62,889 bases of DNA, filler included, from Stramenopiles sp. TOSAG23-3 (GCA_900128585.1; 7 parts of 7 records of this genome joined end to end with filler, not necessarily neighbours in it); one strand, 5' to 3'; positions 6,273 through 60,290 are shown, counted from the whole stretch's first letter. Notes: a model not told the origin generated them from the sequence alone. Numbers and translations: made by a program.

Positions 6273-6390
6273 AAAAACAAGAAAATTGGCTGTTATTTAA
6301 GTAAATTAAATTTAGCTTCCTCATACCATATATAATAAAAACAATTAGCGTCCTCATACCCTAATCCTAACTTGGTTCCGTAGTTTTGTT
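6273..6390 (+). repeat. 3'-flank hairpin element family A, long copy with an internal partial duplication
   Basis: AAAAACAAGAAAATTGGCTGTTATTTAAGTAAATTAAATTTAGCTTCCTCATACC...CCCTAATCCTAACTTGGTTCCGTAGTTTTG; matches about a dozen other copies in the window. Confidence 0.9.
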
Positions 6391-6548
6391 TCATTGAGTA
6401 AGATAATTAAAATATTTAATTTGATTTAATTCTTTTTCAAAAATGTTTGTGCTTTTAAATTTAAAAACAAAATACACTGGCTGTTATTTTTTTAAGTACA
6501 TGCGTGATTTAAATTTATCATCTTCATGTATCATACCGCGAAATGCTT

Positions 6549-7823
6549 TTATAAGAGGAATAACTCCGATTTTCGACGGCTGGACTTACCATTTTCTTCG
6601 CTGCTTGTGTTCAATTGAACCGCCTCTTCATTTGGCGGTGCGATAATCGTAGTGTTTCGTCTAACCTTGGTGTGCGTGGATCTTTTATTTTGCCTAATTT
6701 TAATTTTTAGAGTGTTGTCTCCCAAGGTAATAGCCCCTGTATTGCTTCTGTCGCAAAGATACTGTGCTTCTGTGTGACTCCCAAAAGTAACCGATGCCCT
6801 TGACCCACGTTTTATAATTTTCAGGACATTGAAATTTTTCAACAATGTGTAAAGTGAAGCGTCCGTAAGATGTTCAGGTATATTTCGAATGTAGACACCT
6901 GTTTCTTTCGAGTCTAACAATAACGTTGTGCCGTCTTCGTTTCGAGAGAACAATATTTTGTCTCTGTCGAACGGCACGGACAGGTCCAAAGGTTTGGGCT
7001 TGCCGCCTTCGGACTTGGTAGGCCTATCAGACTCGACTGGGGTGGTGACTGGGGTGGTGCTTGGGACGGTCGGCTTTGTGGCTACTACGGCAGAGGCGGG
7101 CGCCGAGTCTTCCAAATGCTCGTCCCTTTGCTCTCCTGGTGTTGCCGCCTTTCTCTTCTCTTGCTTTGTGCGATTAAAAGGCATGTCTTCTAAGATATGT
7201 TCTTCGTTCGTGCGTTTAATAATCGCCAAATCTTTTAACAGTTGGTCCCTTTCTAATTTCAATTTATCCCGTTCCATCCGCAATTGGATTTTGTGAAACT
7301 CTTCTTCAGCCAACTGCGAACGCACAATTTCTAACGTGGAACTCAAATTCCCTATTAACTCCTCCATCTTATGCAACTGTCTTTTTGTTTCGGGCGTATC
7401 CTCAGCTTTCCCGGCCTTTGAAATGGTACGAAACGCTTCCGTGGTGAGAAAAAGTTCGCGCTTTAGACTGCCGTGGATCCTCGTGTAAGATTCTTCCGTT
7501 TCTTTGAAACGCAAAGTTTCAACTTTGTTTATCTGTCTCTCTATTGCAACTTGCTCTGTTAGCTCACTGACCTGCTCTTCGTATTGCATACAAGCGTCGA
7601 GCAACGCATTTTCTGCTGTTTCTAATTCCTGCTTATAAAACTCTAATTTCTGTGTGGTCGTGATGCTTTTGTGGGGAGGTGGTGGGACATTAGAGTTAGA
7701 ATGGTTCGCCGAGTACCGTGGATGATGGTGTATTCCCAGGGCGTCTTCGAACTGCTCATCCCCGGAAGAGTTGGTGTTGTAGACCTCTTCCTCGTTTATG
7801 TCAGCAAACCCGTTGGCCAACAT
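6549..7823 (-). CDS. Coiled-coil protein with C-terminal RRM
   Basis: 424-aa ATG ORF with an E/L/K-rich helical N-half. C-terminal GVYIRNIPEHLTDASLYTLL (RNP2-like) and RASVTF (RNP1-like). Confidence 0.75.
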   Translation of the reverse strand: MLANGFADINEEEVYNTNSSGDEQFEDALGIHHHPRYSANHSNSNVPPPPHKSITTTQKLEFYKQELETAENALLDACMQYEEQVSELTEQVAIERQINKVETLRFKETEESYTRIHGSLKRELFLTTEAFRTISKAGKAEDTPETKRQLHKMEELIGNLSSTLEIVRSQLAEEEFHKIQLRMERDKLKLERDQLLKDLAIIKRTNEEHILEDMPFNRTKQEKRKAATPGEQRDEHLEDSAPASAVVATKPTVPSTTPVTTPVESDRPTKSEGGKPKPLDLSVPFDRDKILFSRNEDGTTLLLDSKETGVYIRNIPEHLTDASLYTLLKNFNVLKIIKRGSRASVTFGSHTEAQYLCDRSNTGAITLGDNTLKIKIRQNKRSTHTKVRRNTTIIAPPNEEAVQLNTSSEENGKSSRRKSELFLL

Positions 7824-8845
7824 GTTTGGTGACAGCTATGAGGAGCTACAGTGCAGTTTCCCCCTGCCCTCTGCCTTGCGTCGCGGTTGCGTTATGTTTG
7901 ACGTTGCTGATGGGTAATTTAGGCTTTTGCCATACATCATTGAGTTTGAAATTGTTGTATAGGTGCCTCAGGNNNNNNNNNNNNAATAATAATAAAGCTG
8001 CTTGCTCATATTTTCAGTTATTATTTTTATGATAATACCATGGTAATACCATGGTATTATACTGTAATACGGTACCTGGGTGCGTTCCGTTCCCGAATTC
8101 CTGCTTGCTTTCTTCTTGTACGGTACTGTATGTTGCAGTCGTCTTCTTCATGATCATCTAAACTCCTAAATCCAAAATTGCATGATTTTTTATTTTGGAT
8201 AGGTTTATTTTAAGTACTATATATTTATAGTCTCTGTAATTTTTAAAATGTGTCAAACAACCAATAAGAGCATACTGTAGAATTTAACAAAACAACAAAG
8301 TAATAGCAAAGAGACAAGAGAGATTTTATTCAATATAGATAGGTATAGCGAAGAGAAAGGGATGATTGGTGGTTATAGGCTTTTGCTTCCATGATCACAC
8401 ATCACACAATTCAGTATTAATTCTTGTAAAGCAAAATCCTAAAAGTGTCAGTCTTGTTGTCAATAGGGTTTATTTTTATTCCATCTTATACACCTGTTAT
8501 TAATATTACTTGAGAGTTCAAAATAATAATAATTTTTTTTTTATTTTTCGTCCCTCCTTCCTTCTTCTTCTTCCTATTCCTAAGAAAAATAATAAGAAGA
8601 ATTAAAAAATAATAATAATAATAACATTATTATTAAAAAAAATTATTATTGAGAGAAAGAAATGAATCAAATTTATTGTTTACTGCTGTGGGAGATAGTA
8701 GATACAGATACGTAAGAGTCTTATTCAAAGAAAGTAATGATCCCACCCTTCATTAAACGAATCAGCTGCACGTTCACATATACTGCTTGAGTATCTGATT
8801 GTAGTTTTCTGTTTTGTTCACCACATACGCCCTTGCGACAACAGA

Positions 8846-9865
8846 ATGTCAATTTCCCGTGTTTATGCTGACGTAAACGCCAACCGGCCACGAGAGTACT
8901 GGTACTATGAAGGTTTGAAGGTTACTTGGGGGAACCAAGATTGTTACGAGGTTATCCGCAAGATCGGTCGTGGAAAGTACTCAGAAGTATTTGATGGGGT
9001 TAATGCGGAGAATGGTAATGAACGGTGTGTTGTGAAAATCTTGAAGCCAGTGAAGAAGAAGAAGATCAAGCGAGAAATTAAGATTTTGCAAAATTTGTGT
9101 GGTGGCCCCAATATAATCACTCTGTTGGATATAGTCCGAGATCCGCAGAGCAAAACCCCAAGTTTGATTTTCGAACATGTCAACAACACCGACTTCAAAG
9201 TGTTGTTCCCCACCCTCACCGACTACGACATCCGGTATTACATTCTTGAACTCTTAAAAGCGTTAGACTTCTGCCACTCCCAAGGTATTATGCACCGGGA
9301 CGTCAAGCCTCACAACGTAATGATCGACCACGCGCAGCGAAAGCTTCGCTTGATTGACTGGGGGTTGGCAGAGTTTTACCATGCTGGCCGCGAGTACAAC
9401 GTTCGTGTCGCATCGCGGTATTTCAAAGGCCCGGAGCTTCTAGTAGACTTGCAAGATTACGATTACTCCTTGGATATGTGGAGTCTAGGCTGTATGTTCG
9501 CCGGTATGATCTTTCGTCGCGAACCGTTTTTTCACGGGCACGACAACTACGATCAGTTGGTGAAGATTGCCAAGGTCCTTGGGACAGACAACTTGAAGGC
9601 ATATTTGGAAAAATACGAATTAGAACTGGACCCACAATTTGAAGGCCTGCTTGGCCGACATACTAGGAAGCCATGGAGTAAATTCATCAACAGCGAAAAC
9701 ACCCACTTGGTGAACCCAGAAGCACTTGAGTTTTTGGACAATTTACTGCGCTACGACCATGCGGAACGGGTCACTGCCAAGAATGCCCAGAACTTCGATT
9801 ACTTCAAGCCGATCCGAGAAGAGCAAGCCTCCACCGCGGCTGGGAAAGGAGAGGGAAAAGCATAA
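8846..9865 (+). CDS. CSNK2A: Casein kinase II catalytic subunit alpha
   Basis: [42 protein letters not shown] and [16 protein letters not shown] are diagnostic CK2 alpha motifs. Confidence 0.98.
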
Positions 9866-10173
9866 GATGCTCCTCCTCGTGTGACGGGCGGTAAAATGAA
9901 GTTGTCGGTTACTGGTTCGTCCTGCAAGAAAATGCCCCCGGTCAAAATGCAAAAAAAGTAAGATCATACCGCCTCATTTTAATATATGAAATGGTTTTGT
10001 TTACTTTGAAACCAGAAGAAGGTTTTATATAGTTACTAATTATTTTTTATATGATATTATTTTTTATTTTGTTTTTTGTTGTGTTGTGTTGTGTTGTTTA
10101 TATTGCCGTGTCTACTTCTACAGCTAGCTGCTATAATACCGTAAGGAATTTGGTCTTGAGAAGAAAGGTATAA

Positions 10174-10273
10174 NNNNNNNNNNNNNNNNNNNNNNNNNNN
10201 NNNNNNNNNNNNNNNNNTTAATTAATTAANNNNNNNNNNNNNNNNNNNNNNNNNNNNNNNNNNNNNNNNNNNN
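10174..10273. other. Artificial scaffold linker (44N-TTAATTAATTAA-44N); identical linkers at 20439-20538, 30643-30742, 40841-40940, 51031-51130 and 61218-61317
   Basis: The same 100-bp spacer with stops in all six frames occurs six times, and the intervening scaffolds decrease monotonically in length. Confidence 0.98.
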
Positions 10274-10480
10274 GGCCCTGCTTACTACGCTTTCTATTGT
10301 AGGGGATGCCCCCACGATGCCCGCTTCCTCCGTGTACTGTTTTTCCTTGCTACCAGCGTCAAGCCTATTTGGAGTGCTGCCAATTGCTGGCAACACCGTT
10401 TGCCTCTCGAGGCCATCTACAACTTTCTTCCTCTTCTTCCTTCGACGTGGTAAAGACACAGACGGTCGACCTCTATACAT
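10274..10480 (-). CDS. Possible 5' part of a hypothetical gene truncated by the scaffold end
   Basis: Coding-like GC content, open from ATG 10480 to the scaffold edge; basic NLS-like PRRRKKRKK. Confidence 0.35.
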
Positions 10481-10639
10481 GTGTTCTAATAAATCTGCGT
10501 CGGGATATGGGATTCGGTGATGACGAGGCCATCTACAACTTCCTTCCTCTTCTTCCTTCGACGTGGTAAAGACACAGACGGTCGACCTATATACATGTGT
10601 TCTAATAAATCTGCGTCGGGATATGGGATTCGGTGATGA
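10408..10639. repeat. Direct tandem duplication, 2 x 116 bp with 2 mismatches
   Basis: CGAGGCCATCTACAACTT...GGATTCGGTGATGA starts at both 10408 and 10524. Confidence 0.95.
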
Positions 10640-11002
10640 ATTCCGAATGCGTTTCCTTTCAAACTAGCATGACTGCCGGTCGGTAATTAGCTTGTACATT
10701 ACATAGTTCTATTTCTTCAAAATTCAAAAGTTGGAAAAATCTGATGATGATGATTATTACATTACTGTCTNNNNNNNNNNNNNNNNNNNNNNNNNNNNNN
10801 NNNNNNNNNNNNNNNNNNNNNNNNNNNNNNNNNNNNNNNNNNNNNNNNNNNNNNNNNNNNNNNNNNNNNNNNNNNNNNNNNNNNNNNNNNNNNNNNNNNN
10901 NNNNNNNNNNNNNNNNNNNNNNNNNNNCACTATAATAATACATTTGAGAAGAAGAAGAAGAAGAAAAAAAAGCAAGGAAGAAGTGAAATAATAATAATAG
11001 TC

Positions 11003-12443
11003 TCGAGTTAATGGCCCGGTCAAGCCGGGCCTCGTGCTCCAAGTGGGCGTCTTCCAAGGAACTCGCCTGCTCAGTTTCCTCTATAAAATACATTTCCGTA
11101 AATTTCACCGGGTCGGGAGAAAATTCGATTTCACCCAGCATGGTGTCAACATTAGAAAGTGCAACTTCCCCCATCGCTTTCAGGGACTTTCCGACAGATA
11201 CAATTATGGCCCGTGTTTCGTCAACCTTTTGCGCCGCAATTTTCTTCTTTATATTTCCAAGGCGCGCACGCAACTGTTTCGTTTCAGTTTCCATTCGTAC
11301 CATGTCCATCATCAAGTCGCCTTCCTGTTTCTTCGCCAGCTGCAGCGCGCGTTCCAACTCTTGCAGCTCTTGCTGCTTTTCATTTCGCAGGCCGAGGGTC
11401 GTCTCTAATTTCGCATTCACCGTCAACGTCTTCCAGGCGACAAAAATATCTTTGAACGATATCTTCTTCAGCCTTCTAAAATACTTTGCAAGCATTTCTC
11501 GCTGGCGAACCGTGTTTTTGGCAGTTTCGCGCCACTGACGAAATGCCCCATTCAAAAGCATCATCTGCCAATTTTTTGACGTTCGCATGAGCACATTTTT
11601 TCTCATAACCCTTCTATCGTGCGCACCTGCCTTGGCGCGATCGTAACGCTTTCTCTCCTTTAATAGCTTGTCCACCTTGCGCTTCAAACTTCGAACTACT
11701 TCAAAATATGGCGTTGAACGGAGCAAAGAGCGAAGATCGGACAGTTCGTCTGGCTCGTTACGGTAAACAGACCGGAGCAATTCCGTTCGAAGGTCTCCTA
11801 TGTGCTGAAAATGCTTGAGCCGCTCGGATATTTTTGCCAAAATGTCGCAGCACAGCGCCGTGCTGACCCTGTTCGGGGTGCCAATGTTTCCAGAGGACAC
11901 TGCATTAAAGATATCCTTTAGTGCGTAAGCATCGCTTTCGGACGGGTTCACAGATATTGCAGCCCGCACTAAATCCTCGAATGCCGTGCCGTATTTGTCG
12001 TACCACGTCATCAGTGCCTCTTCCGTTTTGTCGTCAAGAATAGCTTCCCCTTCTACGGTGGCGTCTATTGGAGTATCCCCCACCAAACGTGCCAAATCGG
12101 CGAGAGACTCCGCAAGTTCTCCCGCGCTTATCACTGGTTCCTCGTAACTTAAATTATTGCTGGAGTGGGGCTGGTTGCTTTCAGCCGGTCTCCACTGCCT
12201 TCGTTGGTCTATCGGTTTCAATTCCCTGGGGCTTGCAAGTTTAGTCGTGGTGTGATTGCGGCCGGTTTCCAGCTTCACCGGGCTTTTCTTCCGGGCAGCG
12301 GGCAAATTGCGCACACCATGACCAGGGGGGGGACGCACCTGGCGGCTCCCCGTAGGGGCAGCGGCACTCGTCGAGAAGGGCCTTCGCCGAGGGCCCACTC
12401 GATTTTTCTGGGACCCATTGTTCACAAGAAAACCCTTTTTCAT
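11003..12443 (-). CDS. Hypothetical coiled-coil protein, 3' end lost
   Basis: About 480 codons of coding-like sequence from ATG 12443, with Trp-containing helical motifs (GAFRQWRE, IFVAWKT) and a coiled coil. It runs without a stop into AT-rich microsatellite and an N gap. Confidence 0.75.
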
Positions 12444-13326
12444 GCTGCTCTCAAGGAGTATAAATAGTCCTTCCTAACTCTGACTTCGTTTGACTATATA
12501 TATACGCGTTGTGTTGACTAACGTTGATTTTAGCTTTGTAAACTCTTAAATACCATGACAAAATTGAATAAGTGAAAAAAAATATTCACATATTTCCATT
12601 TGACTTGAGAAGGAGGAACATTAACTATTGTTACAACTCCAATAGTCAATTGGATTAATACACATATTTGTTCACAACAAATAAAAAATATGGAAAAAAA
12701 AATGTCGTTATTTATTATTTTTTAATAATAATAAAATTCCGAAGAAGAAGAAAGAAGAAGAACAGCGAGAGAGACGAAGAATAAAAAAATNNNNNNNNNN
12801 NNNNNNNNNNNNNNNNNNNNNNNNNNCTTCATTTTTTTAGTTGTAGTTGTATTATTATATTCGAAATAGTATTAATACCAGTCGGTCTTACTTCAAACAA
12901 ATAAAATTACAATGCTTGTATCTGGTTCCTCGTAGTTGAGGTGTGTGGTGTTTTTCTATGTTTTTGATAACCGATACTTATTACTTGCTATACAATGTAT
13001 TACTTAGTCTATTATACGAGGCGCTTGAAATCCTGGTGGTAAACCTTGGCTTGATCTTAAATTCCATCCACTCTGATGCTCTCTGATGCTCGAGTTGAGT
13101 TCGTATGGTCGGCGTATTTGTAATGTACACTTCATTATATCATCATCATCCATCATATATTATTATCAGTGTACACAGTATTATTTTATAATAATAATAT
13201 ATAAAATAATAAATTTTAGTCTCCTTTCTTTCTTTTCCGTGCTCGATTATCTCTCATGTATACATACAGTATTTGGCAAAAGATTATTTATGTAGGTCAA
13301 GAATGAACGATTTGCAATCCAAATAG

Positions 13327-16300
13327 ATGGCAGATTTAGTCGTGTCCACGCCGAGGAAAGATAATGGCCGTAGAGGCGATGGGTGCGCTTTCTGGGAAAG
13401 TTCTCCAGCAACGTCAGTAGAATGTCGCCAGATGTCCACCACCTTGCTCTGCGAGCGCCTGCAGCATCGCAGAGGTTTTTCTCCGCAAAAGGAAACGGGC
13501 AATAGTGCATCCTTGGAAATGGCGGCGTCGATTGAATCTGTTGGTTCCAATGACGCGACGCCACCGAAAGAAAATGCAACTGTAGAAGGGTCGCCGGGCG
13601 CACTGTTTCTTACCGCAGTCGACGGCGTGGAAGAAAGGGACAGCACCGTGCGGACGCCAGTACGAAATGAGAACGAACGTTTGACGCAGTCAACTATAAC
13701 ACCAATACCAGAAGAGCCCGAATCGTATTACGAGAGTGACAACAGCGAAGCGTCGAGTTTTTTCGACGAGGACGATGTTGCACAGGGCCCGTCTCCGGAA
13801 GGAGGGAGTGGTGAATATTTCGTCGGAATCAAGGCAAAGGAAGGTTTTTTCCATGCATTGTCGGCAACTTCTTCGTTGCGGAAGAAAAATAGCATGTTCA
13901 AGTACCAAATATCGGAGCAGGTGCCGGATCGAATCCAAGCGTGCACGGGAATAAAAAAATTGAAACCTCTTAGTCCACGGAGCAAGGTGCTCACACTTTT
14001 TGAAAACGAAATGCTTGTTCCAGAGCCACTCCTAGTACGCGCGAACGATGAAGAAACCTTGCTTGGGCTTCAAAACTTGAGCTTGGGCAACAAGAAACTG
14101 TCTTTGCTATCCACGGCCTTGCCTTCCTTGCCCCATATCAAAGAACTAAACCTGGCAAACAATAACTTGAGTCGACAATCTTTAGACGAGCTGTTTCGTG
14201 CGATGAAACCAATGCAGACAATCACTTCCTTGAACTTAAATCGAAACAAAGTATCTAGAAGTTGCCTGTCTAGCTTGGCACATTTGCTTCTTTCAAAAGG
14301 CAACCAGATTGAATCTGTTTTCTTGAAAGGGTGCGGAATCGGAAATAGAGGCATAAAATCGTTTTCTACGACATTGCTGGACAATAGCCCGTCTGGAAAA
14401 ATGCGACACTTGCTGGAGCTTGACCTTCAGAAGAATAACATTGTTTCTTGCTCTTATCTCGTCGATCTTCTTCCCCATTTAAAGTGCCTTGGTACTTTAA
14501 ACTTAGCTTGGAACCCAATAAAAGGCAAAGAGGCAAGCAAAATCGCTTCGGTCTGCCACAGTTCGACTGATATCAAGCGCCTGAGTTTTGCATGGTGCCC
14601 CCTGTTTCCATGTGAATCGCCCGAAGTGTACGCTGAATTCGGTAGACTGATTGAGTGCAGCAGAACCCTTGCTTGGCTAGACCTGTCCTGCACCGGGTTT
14701 TCAAAGGTTTCTTGCCTGGCGGAAGGAATCGCATCGAATAGAACGTTAAAGCACCTGTCCCTTTCGAACAATCGGATCCCCCCCGAAGAGGCTGCGGTGT
14801 TTGCAGAAGCCCTGAAGAGTAACCATACTCTGCTGGGCCTTCATATGCTGATCGGCAATGCGGCACATGTTGATCATTTCGGTTTTTGTATCCCAATAAA
14901 AGACGGACGAATGAGGAACTTGTCCCGCTTAATTTACGAAGGTATAGAAGAGCAAGCGAATGGCATGCCGTCAGAAAACTGTTGGGTATGCGAAGGTTGG
15001 CAAGAGATTCGTTTTTCGTGGACCCCGGGTGTCAGCGGCGGAGGCGGACAGAAAGTGTCGCTTTGTTTATCGATAGAGCGTTGGGTACCACAAGAAATGA
15101 CTTACAACACGGAACTCGAGGCTTATGAATTGTACAGGGTTGTTCCGCCAGGGAAGATAAAATACATGTTTCAAATTGACGAGGGGTACGAGTTTGATTC
15201 ACGGTACGAAACGACGTCGCTAAAGCTATGGCCGTTGGGACCACGGCTGGCGGTCAACGTATTGCACGTGCCTCCGAGGAACATACAAGAGCCAGTGTCT
15301 TTTAAATACACAAAGCCCCGCCCGTTGAAGAAAGGGGAAACGGGTTTAGCAAAAGGCAAAAGCTTTTCGCTTATCCAGAGCGTTTTTGCAAAGCGCTTTA
15401 AGACCAACCGGCACTTTGACCATGTCGCTCAAGCGGGCGCGTGGGAAAATGATGTTGCTCGATTTTGCAGCTGCGAAGGCCCGAGCAAGATTATTAAGGA
15501 CGAAGTGGACGTTTTAAAAATGAATTTGGTAACCGAGCAGCACTATGTGCATTTGACGGCCATATTTAATTATTACTGTAAAAACGTAACTGGCGAAGAA
15601 GACATTCTTCACAGCACCGAGTTCCAGAACATGTTGACGGATAGTGGCCTTGCGGAAAATGCTTCCAACAAATCGGGGGATAGTTTGCTGAACCACATCG
15701 TGTCCTCTACGGATGCAAGCATAATATACACGGCGGCGAACTTTGTGACCAAGGAAGGGCTGGAAAAGTTGAAAGGGCAGCACATGACAACGCATGGATT
15801 TTGCCGCTTCCAGTTCTTTGAATCCTTGTACAGATTGGCAGTGGCCATCCACAAGACGCTGCAAAAGGGCGGGGCCAATGATAGCCTGCTGGTTGGAAAT
15901 GTGTACGAACAAATGGTAAAGAACCATTTAACGAAATTCTGTACACACAACTATTCGGACGATTTCAGGAAAGGGAAGGTGTATGTCTGGGAAACTGAAG
16001 CATTGTTGAGGAAAAACTCTTTAGAGCTGAAGACGTTGTACAAAAAACTAACTGGCTTAGAGATGGGTTCGAAAGGTATTAAACTCGACAGTTTTTTGCA
16101 GTTCTGCACGGTGTGCTTTCAAGACGGGAACCAAGAGTTTTACCGTGGCATGACAATCCCCTTTCTCAAAGACATGTTTTCCCTGTCAAAAATTATTCGC
16201 GAGGATGAATTGAACCAGACCAATAGCTTGCAGTATACAGATTTTTTAGAGGCCTTATGCCGCATTGCTGCAGCGTTGACGGAGCAAGGGGTTGCAGACA

Positions 16301-16815: not shown

Positions 16816-17366
16816 AGTTTATCCATGATCATATTATTGGTTCGACGACTACGAGGATTAATAAATTTTGGAAAAATATATCGACCATTCGTACTTGTAT
16901 TGTCTCTTAGAGCTATAATAATATGCGTGTACCCTAACTATGATGAAAGCAAACATCCACAATTTGTTTTCTGTAGCTAATATTATTCGCCTATATATTA
17001 TATTAGACTATAACTACAACAACCGTTTCAGGACTTTTCGTTCTTCAGAAAATATGAGAAAACACTTTTGAAATACAATAATAATAATATACACGTTATT
17101 CCTCTTCTATATTACATAAAACAACAAGTGAGAGGAGTACCAGGTGGTACGACGAAAAATATAATAATATTAAATATATTTATAATAATAATAATGTGGA
17201 AATGACACAGTCAGGAGAAGAACGAATGAATGAAGAATCATTCACACAAATATGCACTTGTTATACGAATACATACATATGTTAAATATAATTTTCATGA
17301 AAACGTAAAGATCAATTCATGGGATTATAACCATACGAAAGAAAACAAATATATTTTGTTCATTAT

Positions 17367-47301: not shown

Positions 47302-47434
47302 ATAACATTTTAAAATATAATATGATATTAAGAATTTCTTATTTCTTAAATTTTCAAAAAAAGAGCGTCTCTTGTATTTCAGTGAAATGAATATTGCATT
47401 TTCTAAATACACTGTTTAGTCCTCCGGGTTATTC

Positions 47435-51030: not shown

Positions 51031-51610
51031 NNNNNNNNNNNNNNNNNNNNNNNNNNNNNNNNNNNNNNNNNNNNTTAATTAATTAANNNNNNNNNNNNNN
51101 NNNNNNNNNNNNNNNNNNNNNNNNNNNNNNTAAAAATAAAAACACTTTGAAATTGTTTTTGTATAATTATTCTTATTTTTTACATTGAATAGTGAGGAGA
51201 AGGATGTTGGATAAAAAATAAAATATTATTATTATTATTATCGGACTCTATCCCATACATACTCTCCTTCAAACGACGGGCTACATATACTTTCGTTTAA
51301 GAATCATACCATTTCAGTTGATTTAGATTGAATCAAAATCATAGGTATGGAATGTTTTTGCTTTGAATGTCAACGAAGTATTCTAACTGTTCATAATTCA
51401 ATTAAAAATACGAAAGAGTTTAGCTCCATAAAAACAACTGTGGGATTTTAAATTAACAAAAGTTCGAAAGATCCAAGAGTTGTTGGATCTTGACCCTTGC
51501 GCTCGGGAAAGACAACAAATCAGCAAAAGCTGCTCGAGACAGACAGACATTCGGAGTCTGGAAAAGCAGTAGTCGCGACACCCAGGGAAACCTTTTTCTT
51601 TTCATTCAGC

Positions 51611-53507
51611 ATGTTTTATTCGCAGTTAATTCTGGCAAAGAAGGGGACGTTGGGAAAGATATGGCTTGCCGCCCATTTTGCTAAGAAGATCAACAAGGTC
51701 CACGTCCACTCAACAGATATTGATGCTTCTGTCGGTAAGTAACCAACATTTGAACCCAATTCGTGCCACACGTGACATTTACTAACGCCTTTTAACACTC
51801 CTCCCCACAACAGACTTTATCATTTCACCCACGGAACCCCTCTCTTTGCGCGTCTCTGGGCATCTTCTTCTTGGAATTGTCAGAATTTATTATCAAAAAT
51901 GCGAATACCTGCTGAACGATTGTAGTGAGGCACTGATTAAAATCAAGCTGGCGTTCAGAACCGCAGACGTTGACTTGCCCGTTCAAGACCAAGTCGCTTC
52001 ATCTAATGCTATCAACGCCGTTGGTTTTAATACCAGCTTCTTGTCCGTCTTTGATGATACTGCTCTCGAGACCATGGATGGGGAGGGCGATGAAGTCCTC
52101 CCTGGATTGCAGTTCTTAGAGCAGGAGTGGGAGCCCGTTTCCCACCAAGCTGCCGACCGGGACATTACCATGGCCTCCGCTTTCGCCGCTACGCCCCACA
52201 GCAGATCATCCATAAATGGGGCCGATTTCGATGAAAATTCTAGTATTTTAGGTAGCATGACGAAGCCTAGCGCCCGAGACAGAGAGGCACATGGATCAGG
52301 TAGCTTCATTTCAGTCTCTGACGTAGAAATTGGGCGCGACGGCACCCAGAGCAACGGGCAGCAATTGTTCTTGGGTGACGCCGACAACTTGGACAATGTG
52401 CCTCTTGATTCCTCGTTTACAAACGGGGCTAGGCAAAGTCTTGGTAACCAGAACGGCAATTCGATGGATTTGTCCGGCGGTATGGACTACAATTTAAACG
52501 AAAGCGAGCCCCATGGCGCAAATGACGGTGCGGGCCAGGAAAACGATGAAAATGGTGGGCTGCGGGTTAGGTTTGAAAACTTTGAATTAAGTGCCAATTC
52601 GCAGGCTCCGGAGAAGGAGGCGGACGCGGGCCGAGAAAGAAAACGAAGAAAAATAATTGTTGGTAAACGAGACCTGAACACACAATTAGAACACATGGAT
52701 GTTGACCACCGTCACATAGGTCTGACGGTGGACCGGGGCCCACGCGATGTCCTTTCGCTGCCACCCCTCCCAAACGAAAGTGGGATAGGGTATAAGCGCC
52801 GCCAGGATGTCATTGCAGACATAACGGCAGTGTCTGCAAAATTATTTACACACCGGTTCAACCCGTATGCAATGCTGGAAGGGCCCTCCCTGATGCGCTC
52901 AAATGAAATACCCAGGGAAATTCGGGCGGTCTTCGACATTGTGACAAGTTCCCTGCCTATTGAAGAAGTCCTACGCCTCTCAGAAGACAGCGACGAGCAT
53001 GAGTACTCCCAAGGCGGTTATGGGAGCTTTAATGTCGAAGGTGGCCGTGGTGCCCAAATTCAGCAGAATTTTTCGAACGATATGGGCAACGACGATATGC
53101 AAAAAAATTATATGGGTAGTCGTTTCAGCCTTTTGTCGGGGAACGGGGGAAATTTAGACGGCAGCTACCCATCTTTCAATTTAGATGATGGCGTAGAAAG
53201 ACTCTCTGACGAGGACATTGTGGACGAAGCTGCATCAAGGACGCCGGCCCGCCGTACACCCCGGAAAGATATGGGGACACATGTTTTGAACCCTTTGATG
53301 GAAAATATGATGAAAACTATCAAAGAAAAGGCTTCCAAGAAGCCTGTCGTCTTCCATGAAGTGGTGCAGAGCTGCAGCCGTAATTTGGCAGCCAAGTGTT
53401 TTTTTGATCTTTTGGTATTAAAAAGTAGGAACGAAGTCCAAATTCAACAAGCGCAAAGTCCTGATGGATATGGACCAATCACGATTAATGCTCCGATAGT
53501 GGCTTGA
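51611..53507 (+). CDS. RAD21: Cohesin kleisin Rad21/Scc1 (exons 51611-51734 and 51814-53507)
   Basis: MFYSQLILAKKGTLGKIWLAAH and, after splicing, PLSLRVSGHLLLGIVRIY; C-terminal winged helix SRNLAAKCFFDLLVLKS..YGPI. Confidence 0.93.
51735..51813 (+). other. Spliceosomal intron, 79 nt
   Basis: GTAAGT donor, TACTAAC branch point at 51780 and CAG acceptor; removal restores the Rad21 N-terminal domain in frame. Confidence 0.93.
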
Positions 53508-53555
53508 ACCGACGTCCTCAAAATATTTTTTACTACTTTGTAACATAATAATTAT

Positions 53556-53584
53556 CTTAAATAACAGCCAATTTTCTTGTTTTA
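53556..53584 (-). repeat. Family A element, 5' half
   Basis: CTTAAATAACAGCCAATTTTCTTGTTTTA between convergent genes. Confidence 0.85.
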
Positions 53585-53869
53585 ATTATCTTCTCAATTA
53601 AATTATTCATTGACAGCATGAACCATATTTTTGTTTTTTAAATATGACATTATCATCTTCTTAGGTTCAGGTTTTTTTTTAATTCCTGTAATGTTACCCA
53701 TTTTCTTTAATTTACAGAATACTCTTTTTAACTTTTTTCATTTAGTTTTTTCCACGTATAATTGCCCTCTCTGAGTCTCTTAAAAATTCTAAAGCGCCCG
53801 GCTATTTCCTTATAGTAAGCTTATCCAGTAAGACTTACGATTCTCATTCTTTCAGAACTCTCCTGGTGG

Positions 53870-54841
53870 TTAATCACCGGATCCAGCCTGATTTTTCAAA
53901 CGGTCGATCTTCCCGATCGCACATTCTATCCATTCAACAAGAAGTCTGGCCATTCTTTTCAACGGCAACTCGCTCCGTAGTGGCAGAAAAAATACAACAC
54001 GGTCGGTATTGGTTTCGGAGGAGCTTGGTAATAGATTTATTTTTATGGAGGAACCTTCCATGTGAAAAGGTGCTTCTACCGTGACTACCACTGGACCTCC
54101 ATGAGCAGGACAAAGTAAAAATGTTCGATAAGACTGATCAATCGTATCCCACCGCAGTGTAACCAAGAAGTGGCGGCTAATTTCAACGAAAAAATCCCTA
54201 CGACAAAACCATTCAAAGCGTATCCCTTCGACATACTTCCTAATACATGCTGAAACTGGGTCAGTCGTACGCACAGAAATGTGGTTAGCAATTTGTTGCG
54301 ATAAAGGCATGGCGTCCGGAATTTCTATCGTCCAATCGATTATTGCCTTTGCGCCACTGTCGAAGCGAGCCACTATAAAGAGCTCGACGTATTTCCCGCT
54401 GACTACCGATGGTGGTCCACCATTTTCTGGTAATTCCCACAAATGAATAGCAAAATTTACAGCATTGATACCGTCAAGGGTTCTCCCGACTAGAATTTGT
54501 ACACCTGACCTTTCGGATATAAACTTTGCATCGAGTTGTTTCAAGAGCACTGGATTCACAGTGTGCAACTCTTCCAAAGAGTCTTGAAAGATTTGTTTCC
54601 AAGAATGCTCTAAAAATGATTCTATAGACTTTTCAAAAGATCTTTCATTCAAGGAATATTTAAAATGGAACATTTCCTCTTTTTCAACCAAATTTTTGAC
54701 CAAAGCAGAGAATTTTCTCCGGTAGACCATGGGAAAAGAAAATGATACGTTAGTCAAAGGGACTTCCTTCCCAGCCTCGACTTCAACTACATCCAGCAAC
54801 ACAGTTTCGTGGCAAAAGGAAACAATTGTGGAACGAATCAT
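53870..54841 (-). CDS. Hypothetical protein, possibly a divergent BRE/BABAM2 (BRCC45) UEV-repeat protein
   Basis: 323-aa ORF. The C-terminal RRDFFVEISRHF..RWD....RTFLL..VVVTVEAP..LPLKRMAR pattern resembles my recollection of the BRE C-terminal domain; no search was run. Confidence 0.45.
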   Translation of the reverse strand: MIRSTIVSFCHETVLLDVVEVEAGKEVPLTNVSFSFPMVYRRKFSALVKNLVEKEEMFHFKYSLNERSFEKSIESFLEHSWKQIFQDSLEELHTVNPVLLKQLDAKFISERSGVQILVGRTLDGINAVNFAIHLWELPENGGPPSVVSGKYVELFIVARFDSGAKAIIDWTIEIPDAMPLSQQIANHISVRTTDPVSACIRKYVEGIRFEWFCRRDFFVEISRHFLVTLRWDTIDQSYRTFLLCPAHGGPVVVTVEAPFHMEGSSIKINLLPSSSETNTDRVVFFLPLRSELPLKRMARLLVEWIECAIGKIDRLKNQAGSGD

Positions 54842-55048
54842 GAAAATACTTTCATATGAAGTGTATATCTACGATTCCCGGTCAATCCTCTTTCATTTGA
54901 ATAGGGAAATAATATTTGTCCCTCGAGATTGTTGTAGAAATATGGTTTCCACATTAAGAAGTTTAGAATAAGTATCTCTTTTTCAAAATTCAATAATATT
55001 AATTACAAAGATGGTGTCTTTTCTCATCACGGTTGTTGTTGTTTCCTC

Positions 55049-55076
55049 TTAGCTTCCTCATACCCTAAACCTAACT
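55049..55076 (+). repeat. Family A element, 3' half only
   Basis: TTAGCTTCCTCATACCCTAAACCTAACT, in a divergent intergenic region. Confidence 0.75.
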
Positions 55077-55477
55077 GAAAAAATGGAAGACATTGTTAAG
55101 GCAGATAGCAAAGAAGAATGGGCGCGTAGCGCCACATAGCACGAGGAAAGATGATTAGACTTTTCTGCATCTTGCTCCAATTATAAATCTATGCTGTTAT
55201 TATCTCGTGTTCTCGTACTTCTTTCTTTTCACCTATCAGCAGTTGGAAGCAATTTCGTATAATATTTATCGCAATAAACTTGTATGCGTCCGCAATACCC
55301 GAAATATTTTGAGGAGGAAATAAACCTCAATCAGAACAATAAGAATGAATCGCGCCCTCCCTCTCTCTTCAAACATTTACATAATTGCTTGTTTTTTCAG
55401 ATTTTACAAATCCCCAATTTATTTGGAAACACGAAGTGAACTTTCAAGCGCCTTGGCGTTTTAGTATTCGGGTGGGG

Positions 55478-58147
55478 ATGATTTCCTTCACGTTCAGGTT
55501 GCTGCTGCTTATGGGCATGTGCATGGCGGCGGCAAAAACCCTAAATCCAGTTCAAGAGACTTTCAGTGAATATTTATTCGCGTTGAATAATGGCATTTTG
55601 GGGAAGGAATGCTCGCCTGTAAATGCAAAGGCAACCTGGTGGCAAGAAAATGAAAGATTTTCTGGCATTGGTGACCTAGAAATATGCTTCTCTCATTTTG
55701 GGTGTACCTATTACACAATGAAAAATCGAACGCACACAGTTTCAATGGAAGAAAATTCGTTAATTCTGTCCCGTGGAGGAGTAGATATGTGCATATTCCT
55801 GAAAGTATTTTTTTCCCCGGAAAAATTTGATGAAACTGAAGTGTGCCAATTTTCGCACGCACAGCGCGATTTTTGCATTAGATTGCCTGCTTTGACTCTC
55901 TCCTCGATTCCTACTACGATCAATACGTCGATCAATGTATGGGCAGAAATACCTAGCGTATCGGGTAAAATGACACAGGTTCCGTTAAGAACACAGCTGT
56001 TGCAACACACATCGCTCGCAGTCTCCGTTGAGGGTGCACGTTGTAACGCTTCAACAACAATTTCGGAAGAGGATATGCCCATTCTTGACTTCGTAGGTCC
56101 TCATGGGTTCGTTTTTCCTGTTGTGTCCTTTCCATTGTCGCAAGCGCCAGAAGCTTCAAAAAAACGGTTACTGCAGATTTTTGGGTATGCATGCATAGAT
56201 TTTGAGGATGCCAAAGAGAAGGGGGCTTCCAGAACACGCAGGTGTTCTACTTTAGACGGGTTGAAAGAAAATCGTCCATTTGATAGTTTAGCCTTCTCCA
56301 TTACGGATGAATTGGTGCATACTCTGGTGTTTACATTGCTTCCTGGCAAGCCCTGCCAGACATCGGGGAAGTACCTGCACATGAAATTTCAGGACGCTGT
56401 CCAATTTAAATACTCAGCATCAGAGCTTCAAGTGGCAATGTGGTCCGCAGTTATGCTTAGTGCAGTGGCAAAGCAGTTCACTAGTGCGTTTGCTGGTGTT
56501 AAAAGTTTGCTTGCTAGTGCAGGTGGCTGTACAGGCGGAATTGAGCATTCCTCGTCCTTTCTCAATTTTTTGCCGATGTATTCCACCCCGCTGATGGCTG
56601 TAACGAAACTAGGGTGGGAAGAGGGGGTTAAGGAAGTATTGTCATGGCTCCAATCTCTGCAAATGAAGGACTGTATTCCATTAGATTTGCGAGATCGAGA
56701 TGGTCAGCCATTGCTCGAAGTTGCAACGACATATGGGAGCCTTGCCACAGTGGACATCATGAAACGTCTCGTCGCCGCTTCCTCGACTCTGTCACCGGAC
56801 CGAAAATATGAAGATATGTGCTTGGCCATGACTGGCGCCGCACGGTACGGTCACCACGACAATTTCGCTTATTTTCAATCTCACGCTTGGAGGACTGCCC
56901 ATCCTTATGGATTGTCACTGTTGCTTGCGTCTGCTGCTGGGCACTACGAAATTGTTGAAGCATTGCTTTTTGCTGATACCCAAGAACAAGACCAAACGTT
57001 AAAATTGAAAGAAGCAATTGTTCCTCGATCATGTCTGGAACGTGAAAGAGGTCGTTACGGCGTGGATCCTGGTCGACACCATAATCATTTACACCATACG
57101 GCTTTGATAGCTGCTACACGACAAGGTCACGTCGATGTTGTGAAAAGGCTTGCAATGCATTTACCCGCGAGCATTGAGGTCATGGACGGCTCCGGTTACA
57201 CAGCAATAATGTGGGCAGGATTTCTGGAGACCCCGCGGCGGTTGGAAACCGCAAAAATTTTGATTGAGGCCGGTGCCGATCCAACGCGGCTAATGAACTA
57301 TGGAAACATTCCATTTGTGGATACTGTCGAGGACTCTGCAATGATAAATATTCTTCATGGAAGTCCGCACGTGACAAGCTACAATAGAATTAAAACGGAG
57401 GGGCGAGATATTGCTGTCTGCTTCAGGGGTGGGCTGCGATCGTACCATCAAGTTAAGCATGCAATGAAAGAAAGGTGGTTTGATCCGCTTGGTGAGGGTG
57501 GCCGATTGTCCCTTATTGGTTTGCAAGCATTCGGTGACAAGAAGTTTGAAGAAGCAAAAGAAGCTGGCGAATTTTCTCCCCTCCATTTTGATGTTCTTAA
57601 CTTGCAACCAACAAGAGATCCGCGCACATATCTGGACAATTATGACCCCGTAATTTACCAGTCGTGTACACCATATGCCGCGCAACGAGGTTTTTCATCG
57701 AGCTTGGAAGCAATGCTCTTGCTCAATCATGACATATCGCGGTGTGCAGATTCTGTAGAGAAATTAGAATCCCGTCGGGGAGGAGCCAAATTCACCCATA
57801 TTTTTTTGCTTCGCTGGGACATTTACCCTTTGAAAAAAATGGCGTTTGAATATTTGCAAGGCATTGACACAACAATAATTGTGCCTAATCTTGTCGGAAC
57901 AGGTATCGACGAAACCGCAGCACTTGGTCCCAGGAGGTACATGATGAAGTATTTGAGGGGGATCGAGTCTCAGTGGTACAAGATTTTAACCAAAATGGAG
58001 CCGTGCAAGCATGTGACAAACTTTGAAGAAATTGTGCGCTTCGTGTTAGCAAATGCTGGTGTACCTGTCAGCAGCAATGCCTGGTTAAACTCACGGAAAG
58101 TTCGCACAGAGGGGTGGTGCCGACAGAGCAACAACTGTGCGATATAA
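55478..58147 (+). CDS. Signal-peptide protein with ankyrin repeats and a C-terminal putative glycosyltransferase-like domain
   Basis: MISFTFRLLLLMGMCMAAA leader; ankyrin motifs TPLM, AARYGH, AAGHYEIVEALL, TALIAATRQGHVDVVK and GYTAIMWA..LIEAGAD; C-terminal IAVCFRGGLRS...HIFLLRWD. Confidence 0.78.
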   Translation: MISFTFRLLLLMGMCMAAAKTLNPVQETFSEYLFALNNGILGKECSPVNAKATWWQENERFSGIGDLEICFSHFGCTYYTMKNRTHTVSMEENSLILSRGGVDMCIFLKVFFSPEKFDETEVCQFSHAQRDFCIRLPALTLSSIPTTINTSINVWAEIPSVSGKMTQVPLRTQLLQHTSLAVSVEGARCNASTTISEEDMPILDFVGPHGFVFPVVSFPLSQAPEASKKRLLQIFGYACIDFEDAKEKGASRTRRCSTLDGLKENRPFDSLAFSITDELVHTLVFTLLPGKPCQTSGKYLHMKFQDAVQFKYSASELQVAMWSAVMLSAVAKQFTSAFAGVKSLLASAGGCTGGIEHSSSFLNFLPMYSTPLMAVTKLGWEEGVKEVLSWLQSLQMKDCIPLDLRDRDGQPLLEVATTYGSLATVDIMKRLVAASSTLSPDRKYEDMCLAMTGAARYGHHDNFAYFQSHAWRTAHPYGLSLLLASAAGHYEIVEALLFADTQEQDQTLKLKEAIVPRSCLERERGRYGVDPGRHHNHLHHTALIAATRQGHVDVVKRLAMHLPASIEVMDGSGYTAIMWAGFLETPRRLETAKILIEAGADPTRLMNYGNIPFVDTVEDSAMINILHGSPHVTSYNRIKTEGRDIAVCFRGGLRSYHQVKHAMKERWFDPLGEGGRLSLIGLQAFGDKKFEEAKEAGEFSPLHFDVLNLQPTRDPRTYLDNYDPVIYQSCTPYAAQRGFSSSLEAMLLLNHDISRCADSVEKLESRRGGAKFTHIFLLRWDIYPLKKMAFEYLQGIDTTIIVPNLVGTGIDETAALGPRRYMMKYLRGIESQWYKILTKMEPCKHVTNFEEIVRFVLANAGVPVSSNAWLNSRKVRTEGWCRQSNNCAI

Positions 58148-58222
58148 ATCTTTATGTTTCAGCATCTGTAAAATCCTCAAGAAAAAAACCAATTTCATCC
58201 TTAGCTACGGTAATTAAGAATT

Positions 58223-58608
58223 AAAAACAAGAAAATTGGCTGTTATTTATAGAAATTAAAAACAAGAAAATTGGCTGTTATTTTATAGTAATTAAAATAT
58301 AGTCGTCTAATAAAAAGAAAAAAGAAGGTGTCAGTTCAAGAATAATATCTCCTACTATTGCAGGATCCTCCCCAAGTTTTGGTCAAGATTCCAATTGATT
58401 GGTCTTAAAAGTACTTAAATAACAGCCAATTTTCTTGTTTGTAAGTACACAGCGGCATAAATGTTTTAAAGGGGCTCGTTGTCTGTGGTACTGCTCAATG
58501 AAATAAAAACAAGAACATTGGTGGCTGTTATTTAAGTAATTAAATTTAGCTTCCTCATACCCTAATCCTAACTTATTTTAAAGTAATTTTAAAATTTAGC
58601 TTCCTCAT
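58223..58608. repeat. Cluster of family A copies: + 58223-58342 (tandem pair plus tail), - 58412-58440, + 58505-58574, fragment around 58592-58608
   Basis: Direct sequence matches to the consensus, between two convergent genes. Confidence 0.9.
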
Positions 58609-58827
58609 CTACCGCGAAATTGAATCTACTCAGCATTTGCCCATTAGAGGTTTACATTCCTTCATGTACTGCGAACTGATCTCAACTGTGGTGATTTTGG
58701 TAAATCAATATACCCTTGTCACTCAGTCTTGACTATCATGTTCAGATGTAAGTACTCCATGCAGCTATTATTTTGTTTTTACATTTAAGTTTCAATATTT
58801 GATTTGTAAATGATGTAAATTACTCAC

Positions 58828-60003
58828 TCACTCACTCTCCTCCGTTTTCTTAATGACACCTTTTTCAAGCATATCCTTGTACGAATTCCCAAAACAGTCT
58901 TCAATGCCTCCGTTATGGTCAGCTATTTCTAAGACCCAATTAGCGTGACGTTTCAATCCTTCTTCCAACGTAACTTTGGGCCTCCAACCAAGAGCCATGA
59001 GTTTGCGCGGATTCAGAACGATGTGCCTTACATCGCTGCACCTGAAATCACCATTGTAAACCGGCGAAATCGGATCCGATTGGCGTGATAAATACTCGCA
59101 CATAAAGTTTGCAACCGTTCCCATAGTATCACCACCTCTTCCCGTCCCTACGTTAAAAGCATCCCATTTTGCTGAATCGCTCATCATGACACACAAATTT
59201 GCCCTGGCAACATCTTCCACAAAAACAAAATCTCTCATTTGATTGCCATCTTCAAATACTATCGGTGCCTTCCCGTTCATTATTCTGGTGGAAAAAATTG
59301 AAAGTACCCCGGCATAAGGGTTGTGGATGCTCTGCCTTGGCCCGTGGACGATACTATAGCGAAGAGCAACAGTAGGAATACCAAGTTCTCTGCCAGCTGC
59401 TATTGTAATTTTTTCTTGTGCGAATTTTGCGATATGGTATGGGTGACTTGGCCGTAGCTCCCTATCTTCGGCAATTTCGTATGGACCGCACTCAAGACCA
59501 TCATCACTGTAAACTTCAAAATCTGCTTTGGACATCCGGACTTCAGACCGGTAGCCAGGGGGGATAAATTCGCTTCCATCTTTCTTCAAGTAACTGGCGC
59601 AGCCGTATACAGCCATGCTAGAGGCAACCACTATTTTTTTAATTGGCAGGGTGTTGTCCTTAATGACGTCGAACATTACGCAAGTGCCTGTTGCTGCTTC
59701 ATCAAATACATGCCGAAAACTGTCTTTCTGGGTTCCTAAATAACTACTTGCTGCTTGGTGAAACACAACGTCAATACCTTCCAACGCCAATTTCATATCA
59801 TTTGCATTACATGTTGATCCTAAGATAAATTCTACTTCATTTGGTACCCATGACGGTTTCACCTTACTCTGGTGGGTTGGCGGGAGCAGTGCATCAAGTA
59901 CCCGTACACTGCATCCATGCTCCTTCAGCAAAATGTCAACAATGTGGGAACCGATTAGACCTGCCCCTCCTGTAACTAAAATGTTTAGATTATCAAGCTT
60001 CAT
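58828..60003 (-). CDS. NAD-dependent nucleotide-sugar epimerase/dehydratase (extended SDR, prokaryotic WbiB-like)
   Basis: ILVTGGAGLIGSH, VFHQAA, VVASSMAVYG, YHIAK (YxxxK) and GPRQSIHNPYAGVLSIF..IVFEDGNQMRDFVFVEDVARAN. Confidence 0.92.
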   Translation of the reverse strand: MKLDNLNILVTGGAGLIGSHIVDILLKEHGCSVRVLDALLPPTHQSKVKPSWVPNEVEFILGSTCNANDMKLALEGIDVVFHQAASSYLGTQKDSFRHVFDEAATGTCVMFDVIKDNTLPIKKIVVASSMAVYGCASYLKKDGSEFIPPGYRSEVRMSKADFEVYSDDGLECGPYEIAEDRELRPSHPYHIAKFAQEKITIAAGRELGIPTVALRYSIVHGPRQSIHNPYAGVLSIFSTRIMNGKAPIVFEDGNQMRDFVFVEDVARANLCVMMSDSAKWDAFNVGTGRGGDTMGTVANFMCEYLSRQSDPISPVYNGDFRCSDVRHIVLNPRKLMALGWRPKVTLEEGLKRHANWVLEIADHNGGIEDCFGNSYKDMLEKGVIKKTEESE

Positions 60004-60217
60004 ATTAAAAGACAGCAAGTCAAAAGCTATTCAGTTTTTTCTTCTTTACCCAAAATATAACGAACAACTAAAATGAACAACATTTTCAATGCCCGAATCA
60101 TGAGAAACAATGTAAAACGCAATGATACTACTCTAATTCACAATAATATTACTTTCATTCTTCATTCAGGATTTCATTCATCAGGATTTAATACCAAGTA
60201 TAAAATGTTTTTGAGAC

Positions 60218-60290
60218 GAAATTACAGAATCAAGTTAGGATTAGGGTACGACGAAGCTAAATTTAATTACTTAAATAACAGCCAATTTTC
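60218..60290 (-). repeat. Family A element, near full length
   Basis: Reverse complement reads GAAAATTGGCTGTTATTTAAGTAATTAAATTTAGCTTCGTCGTACCCTAATCCTAACTTGATTCTGTAATTTC, about 94 bp past the stop at 60385. Confidence 0.92.

Follow-up and report, generated by a model that had tools for sequence, protein, structure and literature searches.

Short repeats behind genes of Stramenopiles sp. TOSAG23-3 are probably 5′-truncated 3′ tails of a high-copy retrotransposon

The stretch examined here, referred to throughout as the window, comprises 62,889 bases of Stramenopiles sp. TOSAG23-3 (GCA_900128585.1) in seven pieces (1-10173, 10274-20438, 20539-30642, 30743-40840, 40941-51030, 51131-61217 and 61318-62889) separated by N44-TTAATTAATTAA-N44 spacers. 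Open reading frame (ORF) calls indicated roughly one gene per 2.5 kb, with long ORFs without introns on the pieces, and Pfam assigned a Sec14-type protein, an EXPERA protein, glucosidase II beta, an Ulp1 protease, a two-pore potassium channel, Rad21 and an epimerase. From its sequence, the gene set appears to be that of an ordinary eukaryote. Behind a number of these genes lies a short dispersed repeat with a common terminal module and, in many copies, a hairpin, which is the subject of this report.

The 29-nt hairpin core was matched four times in the window at no more than three mismatches (0 expected, 100 shuffles), the 19-nt left part ten times (0.06 expected) and the 24-nt tail four times. 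An nhmmer profile of the common module returned 13 matches on four of the seven pieces (6274+, 6478+, 35254+, 37352-, 40764+, 43019-, 47253+, 53583-, 58224+, 58259+, 58440-, 58522+ and 60297-), of which the match at 6478 scored 8 bits and is probably due to chance. None of the nine matches of at least 20 bits lay within an ORF of at least 150 amino acids. An earlier note on this DNA, made from the sequence alone, had placed the copies on four unlinked scaffolds and outside coding sequence, and both statements are borne out. The seven copies that it had reported on the strand of the preceding gene were likewise recovered with ORF calls and Pfam, from 25 to about 130 nt past the stop codons.

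Body types were distinguished by the sequence that follows the module. The type A body is the element originally described, with its CCCTAATCCTAAC tail; in type B the module runs on into ..AATTAATGTACTGCGAACTG..; type C is represented by the variant at 58259 and 40760; and types D and E are two other bodies present among the loci listed from metagenomes. These loci, at least 120 in number (851 kb), were gathered with an 18-nt seed from the module, and chance-like seed matches from unrelated organisms (L018, L019, L023, L060, L073, L100, L117 and L012) were retained among them.

The first window copy (6274-6397, plus strand) is a type A tail copy with module, hairpin and CCTCATACCCTAATCCTAACTTGG tail that has undergone a duplication or insertion within it, at about 6321-6351. 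The copy lies 67 nt past the stop of an RPA1-like ORF (475-6207, plus strand), its flanking repeat is imperfect (score 9), and the element's sense strand is here the minus strand. A copy of about 43 nt (35252-35294, plus strand), 93 nt past the Sec14 stop (33896-35161, plus strand), terminates right past the hairpin (..TTTAGCA), and a degenerate module fragment of 13 bits (37338-37365, minus strand) follows the EXPERA stop (37496-38275, minus strand) by about 130 nt. The type C variant at 40760-40840 (plus strand), about 25 nt past the PRKCSH stop (38936-40735, plus strand), consists of the module followed by ..TATAGTAATTAAAATTAAAGAAAAAAAGAAGGTGTCAGTTCAAGAAC.. and is truncated by the end of the piece. 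On the minus strand, 65 nt past the K2P stop (43084-44874, minus strand), a type A copy with a 5-nt loop insert occupies 42933-43019 and is adjoined by a diverged module fragment in the opposite orientation (42895-42920, plus strand).

Two window copies are bounded by perfect 10-bp duplications. The 50-nt copy at 47251-47300 (plus strand) lies between two occurrences of AATAACATTT (47241-47250 and 47301-47310) and is antisense to the nearest gene (47435-49381, minus strand), whose stop is about 135 nt off. The 24-nt copy at 53559-53582 (minus strand) is module only, without hairpin, has AAGATAATTA on both sides (53583-53592 and 53549-53558), and is antisense to the Rad21 gene at 46 nt from its stop. 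The only window fragment that lacks the module end is a tail-only fragment (..TTAGCTTCCTCATACCCTAAACCTAAC) at 55049-55076 (plus strand) in a divergent spacer. The type C copy at 58224-58410 (plus strand), 77 nt past the stop of the 55385-58147 ORF, has two module starts (58224 and 58259), explained by an insertion of 20 nt nested in it and bearing a duplication of 16 bp, and a short inverted module fragment (58411-58441, minus strand) is nested within it. A composite at 58506-58610 (plus strand) joins a module with a 3-nt insert, the hairpin, the type A tail and a second partial hairpin half with ..TTTAGCTTCCTCAT. Finally, the type A copy at 60220-60297 (minus strand), 88 nt past the stop of the gene at 60385 (minus strand), departs from the family consensus past ..CGTCTCA. 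Read on the strand of the element itself, the type A tail includes a telomere-like GTTAGGATTAGGGT (6361-6374, 42948-42961 and 60231-60244), and the locus copy L065 has CCCTAACCCTAAC at this stretch.

The two ends of the repeat behave differently. All 152 seed matches from the window and the metagenome loci have the left end (A)AAACAAGAAAATTGGCTGTTATTT. The right ends vary, giving element lengths of 19 to 628 nt among the listed loci: some copies end after 20-50 nt with unique sequence beyond, and others run into at least five body types that have only the terminal 35-45 nt in common. Copies of type A, and likewise those of type B, terminate at differing points along one consensus. The listed loci thus display the common end and variable truncation expected of target-primed insertion. 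In the window, six of the seven body fragments carry the module, and several module copies are without a body.

Target-site duplications, which the earlier note had suggested looking for, are present. Exact flank repeats of at least 10 nt were found around 51 of 123 non-redundant copies compared with 72 of 610 controls, in which flanks from different copies were paired, and ungapped flank scores of at least 12 were found for 35 of 171 copies and 32 of 504 controls. In 43 clean cases the duplications were mostly 11-18 bp long, mutually unrelated, and placed around elements whose lengths spanned 19 to 585 nt; on the left, the boundary shifted by a few bases inside an A-run, and the ragged end was adjoined directly by a repeat of the sequence upstream of the module. 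The upstream flank terminates in ..TTAAA(A), and the junction is ambiguous inside the A-run. Overall, duplication length varies from 6 to about 20 bp, the variable length expected of target-primed insertion. The duplications are enriched in TAAA (4.2-fold), GTAA (4.1-fold; 9 of 39 against 2.2 expected) and TTAA (3.8-fold), and they indicate that each copy is an insertion.

An invariant end combined with a ragged one, and with long duplications that vary in length, points to target-primed reverse transcription, the established signature of retrotransposons without long terminal repeats (non-LTR) (PMC10499050, PMC4640811). The repeat is therefore most probably made up of the 5′-truncated 3′ tails of a high-copy non-LTR retrotransposon resembling a long interspersed nuclear element (LINE), viewed in antisense, and the sequence described in the earlier note would probably correspond to the terminal 20 to about 120 nt of that LINE-like element. 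The family is a new one, of a known retrotransposon kind. As the invariant end corresponds to the RNA 3′ end, the strand of the element is the complement of the strand called sense in the earlier note. That note had offered a mobile element inserted at gene 3′ ends as one possibility, and this part of its proposal was right in kind; the types it named, a short interspersed nuclear element (SINE) or a Helentron, do not fit.

The predicted course of insertion is as follows. The element RNA would terminate in ...UACUUAAAUAACAGCCAAUUUUCUUGUUUU-3′ (..CAGCCAAUUUUCUUGUUUU). A nick in AT-rich DNA, placed just past an A-run such as the typical ..TTAAA(A), would free a 3′ end, and this target end would pair through microhomology with the U-rich end of the RNA and prime synthesis of complementary DNA. 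Reverse transcription would proceed inward and mostly halt early, and a second nick, staggered by 11 to about 18 bp, would give rise to the target-site duplication. The longer copies would contain a 3′ untranslated region (UTR) of about 95-115 nt and then the end of an ORF, with a Cys/His cluster followed by a putative PD-(D/E)XK-type domain. Synthesis that halts early in this way accounts for a left end that is kept, a right end that is ragged, and the many copies of 20-50 nt without hairpin. We infer both the RNA intermediate and the priming by microhomology.

The number of copies was estimated by mapping contigs of two marine metagenomes (X4 and X7) and of two oligo-dT RNA runs on 51131-61217. 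The sequence 53400-60400 recurs in three small runs as well as in marine metagenomes, and the sources span 12 studies; the DNA would accordingly come from a marine microeukaryote that is uncultured or has been little studied. Contig depth in the X4 and X7 DNA was about 4-7 over the single-copy parts and 1,077-10,295 in every bin with a copy, reaching 61,384 and 35,316 at position 60272. The DNA contigs terminate at copies, and 1,147 of the 2,395 mapped X4 contigs fit two places. Taken at face value, the element reaches thousands of copies per genome-equivalent, in agreement with the 13 module matches per 63 kb seen in the window. The position of these repeats behind genes causes assemblies of the organism to break at gene ends.

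Mapped contigs also bear on the two window loci at which the module faces itself (58259+/58441- and 43019-/42895-42920+). Such an arrangement, in a small, AT-rich, high-copy element near genes, would suit a miniature inverted-repeat transposable element (MITE), a small DNA transposon with terminal inverted repeats. In contigs of X16, X4 and X7, however, 58408 is joined straight to 58443, with 34 nt skipped and six letters fitting both sides, which indicates that other copies exist without the 58411-58441 insert; this fragment is thus a separate nested insertion. At the other locus, the terminal-inverted-repeat appearance results from the 42895-42920 fragment lying inverted beside the 43019 copy. 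The apparent inverted repeats at both loci are better explained as nested opposed insertions, and comparable nested cases occur at L031 and L092. Since, in addition, most copies have a single module end, the duplications are not of one length, and element size forms a continuum from 19 nt upward, an origin as a MITE is highly improbable. At the metagenome locus L030 (about 2950-6540), at least six fragments of the ORF-bearing repeat described below lie in both orientations within 3.6 kb; this cluster is a nest of insertions.

A hairpin near one end, with that end fixed and the other variable, would also be found at the terminus of a Helitron or Helentron, where the hairpin acts as a rolling-circle terminator. 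Helitrons by definition produce no target-site duplication and encode a Rep/helicase ORF. Duplications are present here, and the ORF linked to the repeat is without any Pfam match, hence without Rep/helicase, and has a predicted fold resembling a PD-(D/E)XK nuclease; we regard a Helitron terminus as exceedingly improbable. A loose resemblance of the module's reverse complement to the spliced leader of dinoflagellates was also considered and rejected, because the module is found at the terminus opposite the ragged end of truncated copies and not at the 5′ end of retrocopied messages, and because the body types part from one another well beyond any site resembling a splice donor.

The position of the copies relative to genes was determined with genes defined as non-overlapping stop-to-stop ORFs of at least 150 amino acids without N, a definition that misses small or intron-bearing genes. 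After matches below 20 bits and five redundant contexts were dropped, 184 non-redundant module matches were placed, and 61 copies with a gene on one side only or none were left out of the spacer counts. Two of the 184 fell within ORFs (L019 and L100), both unrelated chance matches. The 121 copies with genes on both sides comprised 89 in convergent (3′-3′), 28 in tandem and 4 in divergent spacers, and 27 of the 28 tandem copies were closer to the stop-codon side. One copy scored as divergent (60297) was miscalled because its gene enters an N spacer, and is truly tandem and in sense. The tandem copies were 9 sense and 19 antisense, or 10 and 18 once 60297 was added and the chance match L060 removed. 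These counts are strong evidence that the copies are almost confined to gene 3′ flanks, in either orientation, and the description of the repeat as sense-oriented does not carry over to the 184 copies, in which orientation is mixed.

The distribution of the putative target motif was compared with this pattern. T[TA]AAAA or TTTAAA occurs at 7.2-7.4 per kb in 3′ flanks, 5.0-5.3 per kb in 5′ flanks and 1.2-1.4 per kb in coding sequence, and the difference between the two flanks is too small for motif availability to be the cause of the location. Because motif density is alike, the 3′-flank bias requires either targeting of terminator regions or selection against insertions in promoters; it could result from insertion preference or from purifying selection in a compact genome.

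The first reading offered in the earlier note was a structured 3′-UTR, polyadenylation or termination signal; on this reading, the GNRA hairpin would be kept by selection behind genes. Some observations are in keeping with such an RNA signal. The hairpin folds as drawn on the strand given, with centroid energies between -6.3 and -8.5 kcal/mol and z-scores between -1.5 and -1.9 (an equally stable fold was reached by 11-15 of 200 shuffles), and hardly on the other, which is the element's own RNA (a weak stem of -2.3 kcal/mol, z about 0). The seven sense copies in the window lie at the short distances past stop codons given above. In convergent spacers the module end was closer to the same-strand gene in 58 of 89 cases (median 132 compared with 252 nt), a 58:31 figure that is biased because the body of the element always lies on the far side of the module. 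The element is also present in contigs from the RNA runs, for which DNA carry-over is possible; no RNA-run contig was found that bridges a coding region and a copy, and these contigs give neither transcript ends nor strand information.

The variation among copies gives no sign of selection on the fold. When 45 distinct hairpin copies were aligned, none of the 11 base pairs showed change on both sides and the covariation score was equalled in 500 of 500 column shuffles, with the caveat that the search seed fixed the 5′ strand, so that variation there is under-sampled. Invariant pairs are what any young repeat family would have, and the structure-preserving variation that had been proposed was not recovered. 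The apparent stem extension in the 43019 copy results from 5 nt inserted after AAGTA and is one among several indels in the loop: unrelated 5-nt inserts occur at the identical point in L077, L088 and L066, and other copies have inserts of 1-15 nt after TTATTT, making the loop an indel hot spot. The recurrent 5-nt inserts (42985-42995, for example) could be non-templated bases added at a template jump or the product of palindrome slippage. Likewise, the supposedly compensated variant at 58259 belongs to a different body type, other members of which are without the outer strand.

A search of Rfam gave no match for the window at the gathering threshold or for a long copy at E up to 1. Many copies end before the hairpin (in the window, copies of 24 and 25 nt), with lengths from 19 nt up, and those in tandem spacers are mostly antisense. 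With weak fold z-scores, and with flanking duplications that mark every copy as an insertion, an RNA signal is very unlikely as an account of the repeat. No evidence was seen in these copies that the hairpin is under selection as an RNA structure; it is a palindrome rich in A and T within the 3′ UTR of the element.

The LINE-like reading is supported by what lies further along the longer copies. Types A and B merge, further right, into a common repeat of more than 1.2 kb, and its opposite strand bears a recurrent ORF, with the stop codon about 85-115 nt away from the fixed end. The resulting order of ORF, 3′ UTR and 3′ end is that expected of a LINE. Longer forms of the ORF in the protein collection are P0001 (744 amino acids) and P0002 (776 amino acids), and at 50% identity the family falls into 265 clusters, which all consist of fragments, as fits a repeat that breaks assemblies. 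A Cys/His cluster (CPC..C..H..C..H) is located at about 318-345 of P0002, ahead of a folded domain. The AlphaFold model of the element ORF had a predicted local distance difference test score (pLDDT) of 55 overall; its confident part was residues 286-605, and it was good at about 350-605. In a structural search of residues 286-605 against 48,161 chains, the best match was an R2 protein (8ibw_C, Z 7.4, 190 residues aligned, chain 893-1107), followed by a second R2 protein (9dou_A, Z 7.0, 205 aligned), Prp8 and many PD-(D/E)XK nucleases; Foldseek returned a like theme at non-significant values (E 0.06 or worse). The predicted model thus lends weak support to an R2-like restriction-like endonuclease domain, the middling Z values making this assignment a support for the LINE-like reading and not proof. 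Beyond this domain the ORF closes with a long tail of low conservation (P0002 606-776; L025:1403-1798), in which Ser, Asp and Glu are abundant and which is predicted to be disordered (pLDDT about 30). To our knowledge, such a tail past the nuclease domain is unusual for a LINE ORF.

Of the body types, A and B were the ones traced into this ORF; C, D and E were not, and type C homology extends at the longest to about 190-276 nt. Together with the existence of at least five body types that share only the terminal module, this would be expected of SINE-like non-autonomous retroposons that borrow the 3′ tail of a partner LINE. EhSINE/EhLINE pairs, for instance, have a 3′ end in common. A precedent for dispersed intergenic retroposons beside genes is provided by EhSINE and EhLINE of Entamoeba (PMC1635306). 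Types A and B, which make up most of the hairpin-bearing copies in the window, run straight into the ORF-bearing repeat, and no defined 5′ head was seen. ARAGORN found no tRNA-like sequence in the window and Rfam was blank, so the head of a tRNA-derived SINE was not found. As an explanation of the repeat as a whole, SINE-like retroposons are unlikely, and they may hold, by the same mechanism, for some body types alongside the LINE-like reading.

Several points weigh against the LINE-like retrotransposon. A clear duplication was found in only about 30-40% of copies, and the background in the flank-repeat controls was high, because nested repeats are common. The seed lay at the fixed end, so that the constancy of this end outside the window is in part a selection effect; the window copies were not picked by the seed and are independent of it. 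The hairpin is more stable on the strand antisense to the element, which the LINE-like reading treats as incidental, the failure to trace types C, D and E into the ORF counts here as well, and the depth over copies may be inflated by related species sharing the samples. The Z values of 7.0-7.4 are no higher than the best values (Z 7-8) typically obtained for models without a clear match.

A further objection is that no reverse transcriptase was found among the ORF fragments. Pfam was blank for P0001, P0002, P0003 and P0153-P0155 except for a sub-threshold zf-primase, a sequence search of the PDB with the element ORF proteins gave no match, and the protein atlas gave no name for the ORF. A regular expression for reverse-transcriptase motifs matched the 851 kb of loci four times, with none of the matches like a reverse transcriptase, and neither Pfam on the degenerate L057 copy nor a scan of viral contigs revealed one. 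Two protein searches upstream of the ORF reached the fragment P0155 and nothing farther upstream. P0155 opens with ..AFADDLTIV.. and has ..ELLGIPI.. about 125 residues on, which we take to resemble reverse-transcriptase motifs C and E. This fragment had no statistical match, its structure model was unusable (pLDDT 46), and the FADD motif, a short lead, sits where the N-terminus of a single protein is cut.

Other features of the window are noted here. Perfect 79-nt inverted repeats pair 30743-30821 with 34068-34146 and 61318-61396 with 62811-62889. One arm of each pair opens a piece, and the arms of the second pair form both ends of the last piece; these repeats look like assembly or amplification chimeras and not biology. 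Long intergenic (GAA)n / (GAAA)n microsatellites occur at 61-250, 20542-20640, 40941-41220 and 61555-61700, several of them directly at the start of a piece. Relative to the window, both metagenomes (X4 and X7) have a 27-nt insertion after 55319. The match to the window ends at 60349, 36 nt past the stop of the gene at 60385, in an X4 DNA contig and in an X16 RNA-run contig, with 102 and 56 unlike letters beyond; a structural variant on the upstream side of the 60297 copy is suggested by these breaks.

Among known systems, the restriction-like-endonuclease LINEs (R2, R4/Dong, CRE, NeSL, HERO and Utopia) likewise have a precise 3′ junction, a variable 5′ junction and variable duplications. They are without a poly(A) tail, as is the present element, and their ORF encodes a PD-(D/E)XK-type nuclease close to the C-terminus, where the model here offers a putative counterpart. 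The present ORF differs in its long acidic, Ser-rich terminal tail, in the distance from the FADD motif to the Cys/His cluster, which would be about 660 residues and longer than in R2, and in that the fragments found yielded no reverse transcriptase domain. A stem-loop in the 3′ tail that is recognised by the reverse transcriptase is a feature of 'stringent' LINEs, of which eel UnaL2 is an example. The terminal module common to differing bodies and the small stem-loop near the 3′ end resemble those of stringent LINEs and SINEs; unlike theirs, the stem is weak on the element's own RNA strand and shows no covariation. For Utopia, precise 3′ boundaries, varied 5′ boundaries and duplications of 0 or 20 bp are described (PMC4640811), and the R2/Prp8 pairing seen among the fold matches is discussed in PMC5678591.

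The choice of target sets the element apart. Most restriction-like-endonuclease LINEs target one site in repeated genes, such as those for ribosomal or small nuclear RNA, or in microsatellites (PMC4640811). Unlike most of the R2 supergroup, the copies here follow a wide variety of protein-coding genes and occupy AT-rich DNA that is unique, and no repeated specific target was found, the duplications sharing AT-richness, the terminal A-run and the GTAA excess only. The closest analogue in behaviour, likened by description and not by sequence, is EhLINE/EhSINE of Entamoeba histolytica, which has a restriction-enzyme-like endonuclease and untargeted insertion, is intergenic beside protein-coding genes and never within genes in a compact genome, and has long duplications, one of 22 bp (PMC1635306). 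The preferred nick site reported there is GCATT, whereas the duplications here end in TTAAA(A) and are enriched in GTAA; near-exclusive siting in 3′ flanks and truncation to 20-50 nt are features of the present element that do not figure in the excerpts (PMC1635306).

A restriction-like-endonuclease LINE lineage may have left the repeated-gene targets and now actively target the terminators of protein-coding genes, although we consider this an unlikely course of events. Such targeting would involve recognition of AT-rich GTAA...TTAAAA sites or of open chromatin at poly(A) sites. If it is true, a compact marine protist genome would have received about one insertion per gene, and the antisense tail and hairpin would lie inside many host 3′ UTRs, where they may supply signals for 3′-end processing or termination. 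For annotation, the finding means that the short repeats, which follow genes in their thousands, are to be masked as fragments of retroposons and not taken for a regulatory RNA motif. The family is unusual as a possible restriction-like-endonuclease LINE that is dispersed and not site-specific, in its extreme 5′ truncation, down to 20 nt, and in its almost exclusive location in gene 3′ flanks, with about one copy in every 5 kb. If this confinement is due to targeting and not to selection, it would be a 'safe haven' strategy new among those by which retrotransposons persist in compact genomes, and would provide a ready source of common 3′-UTR sequence among genes.

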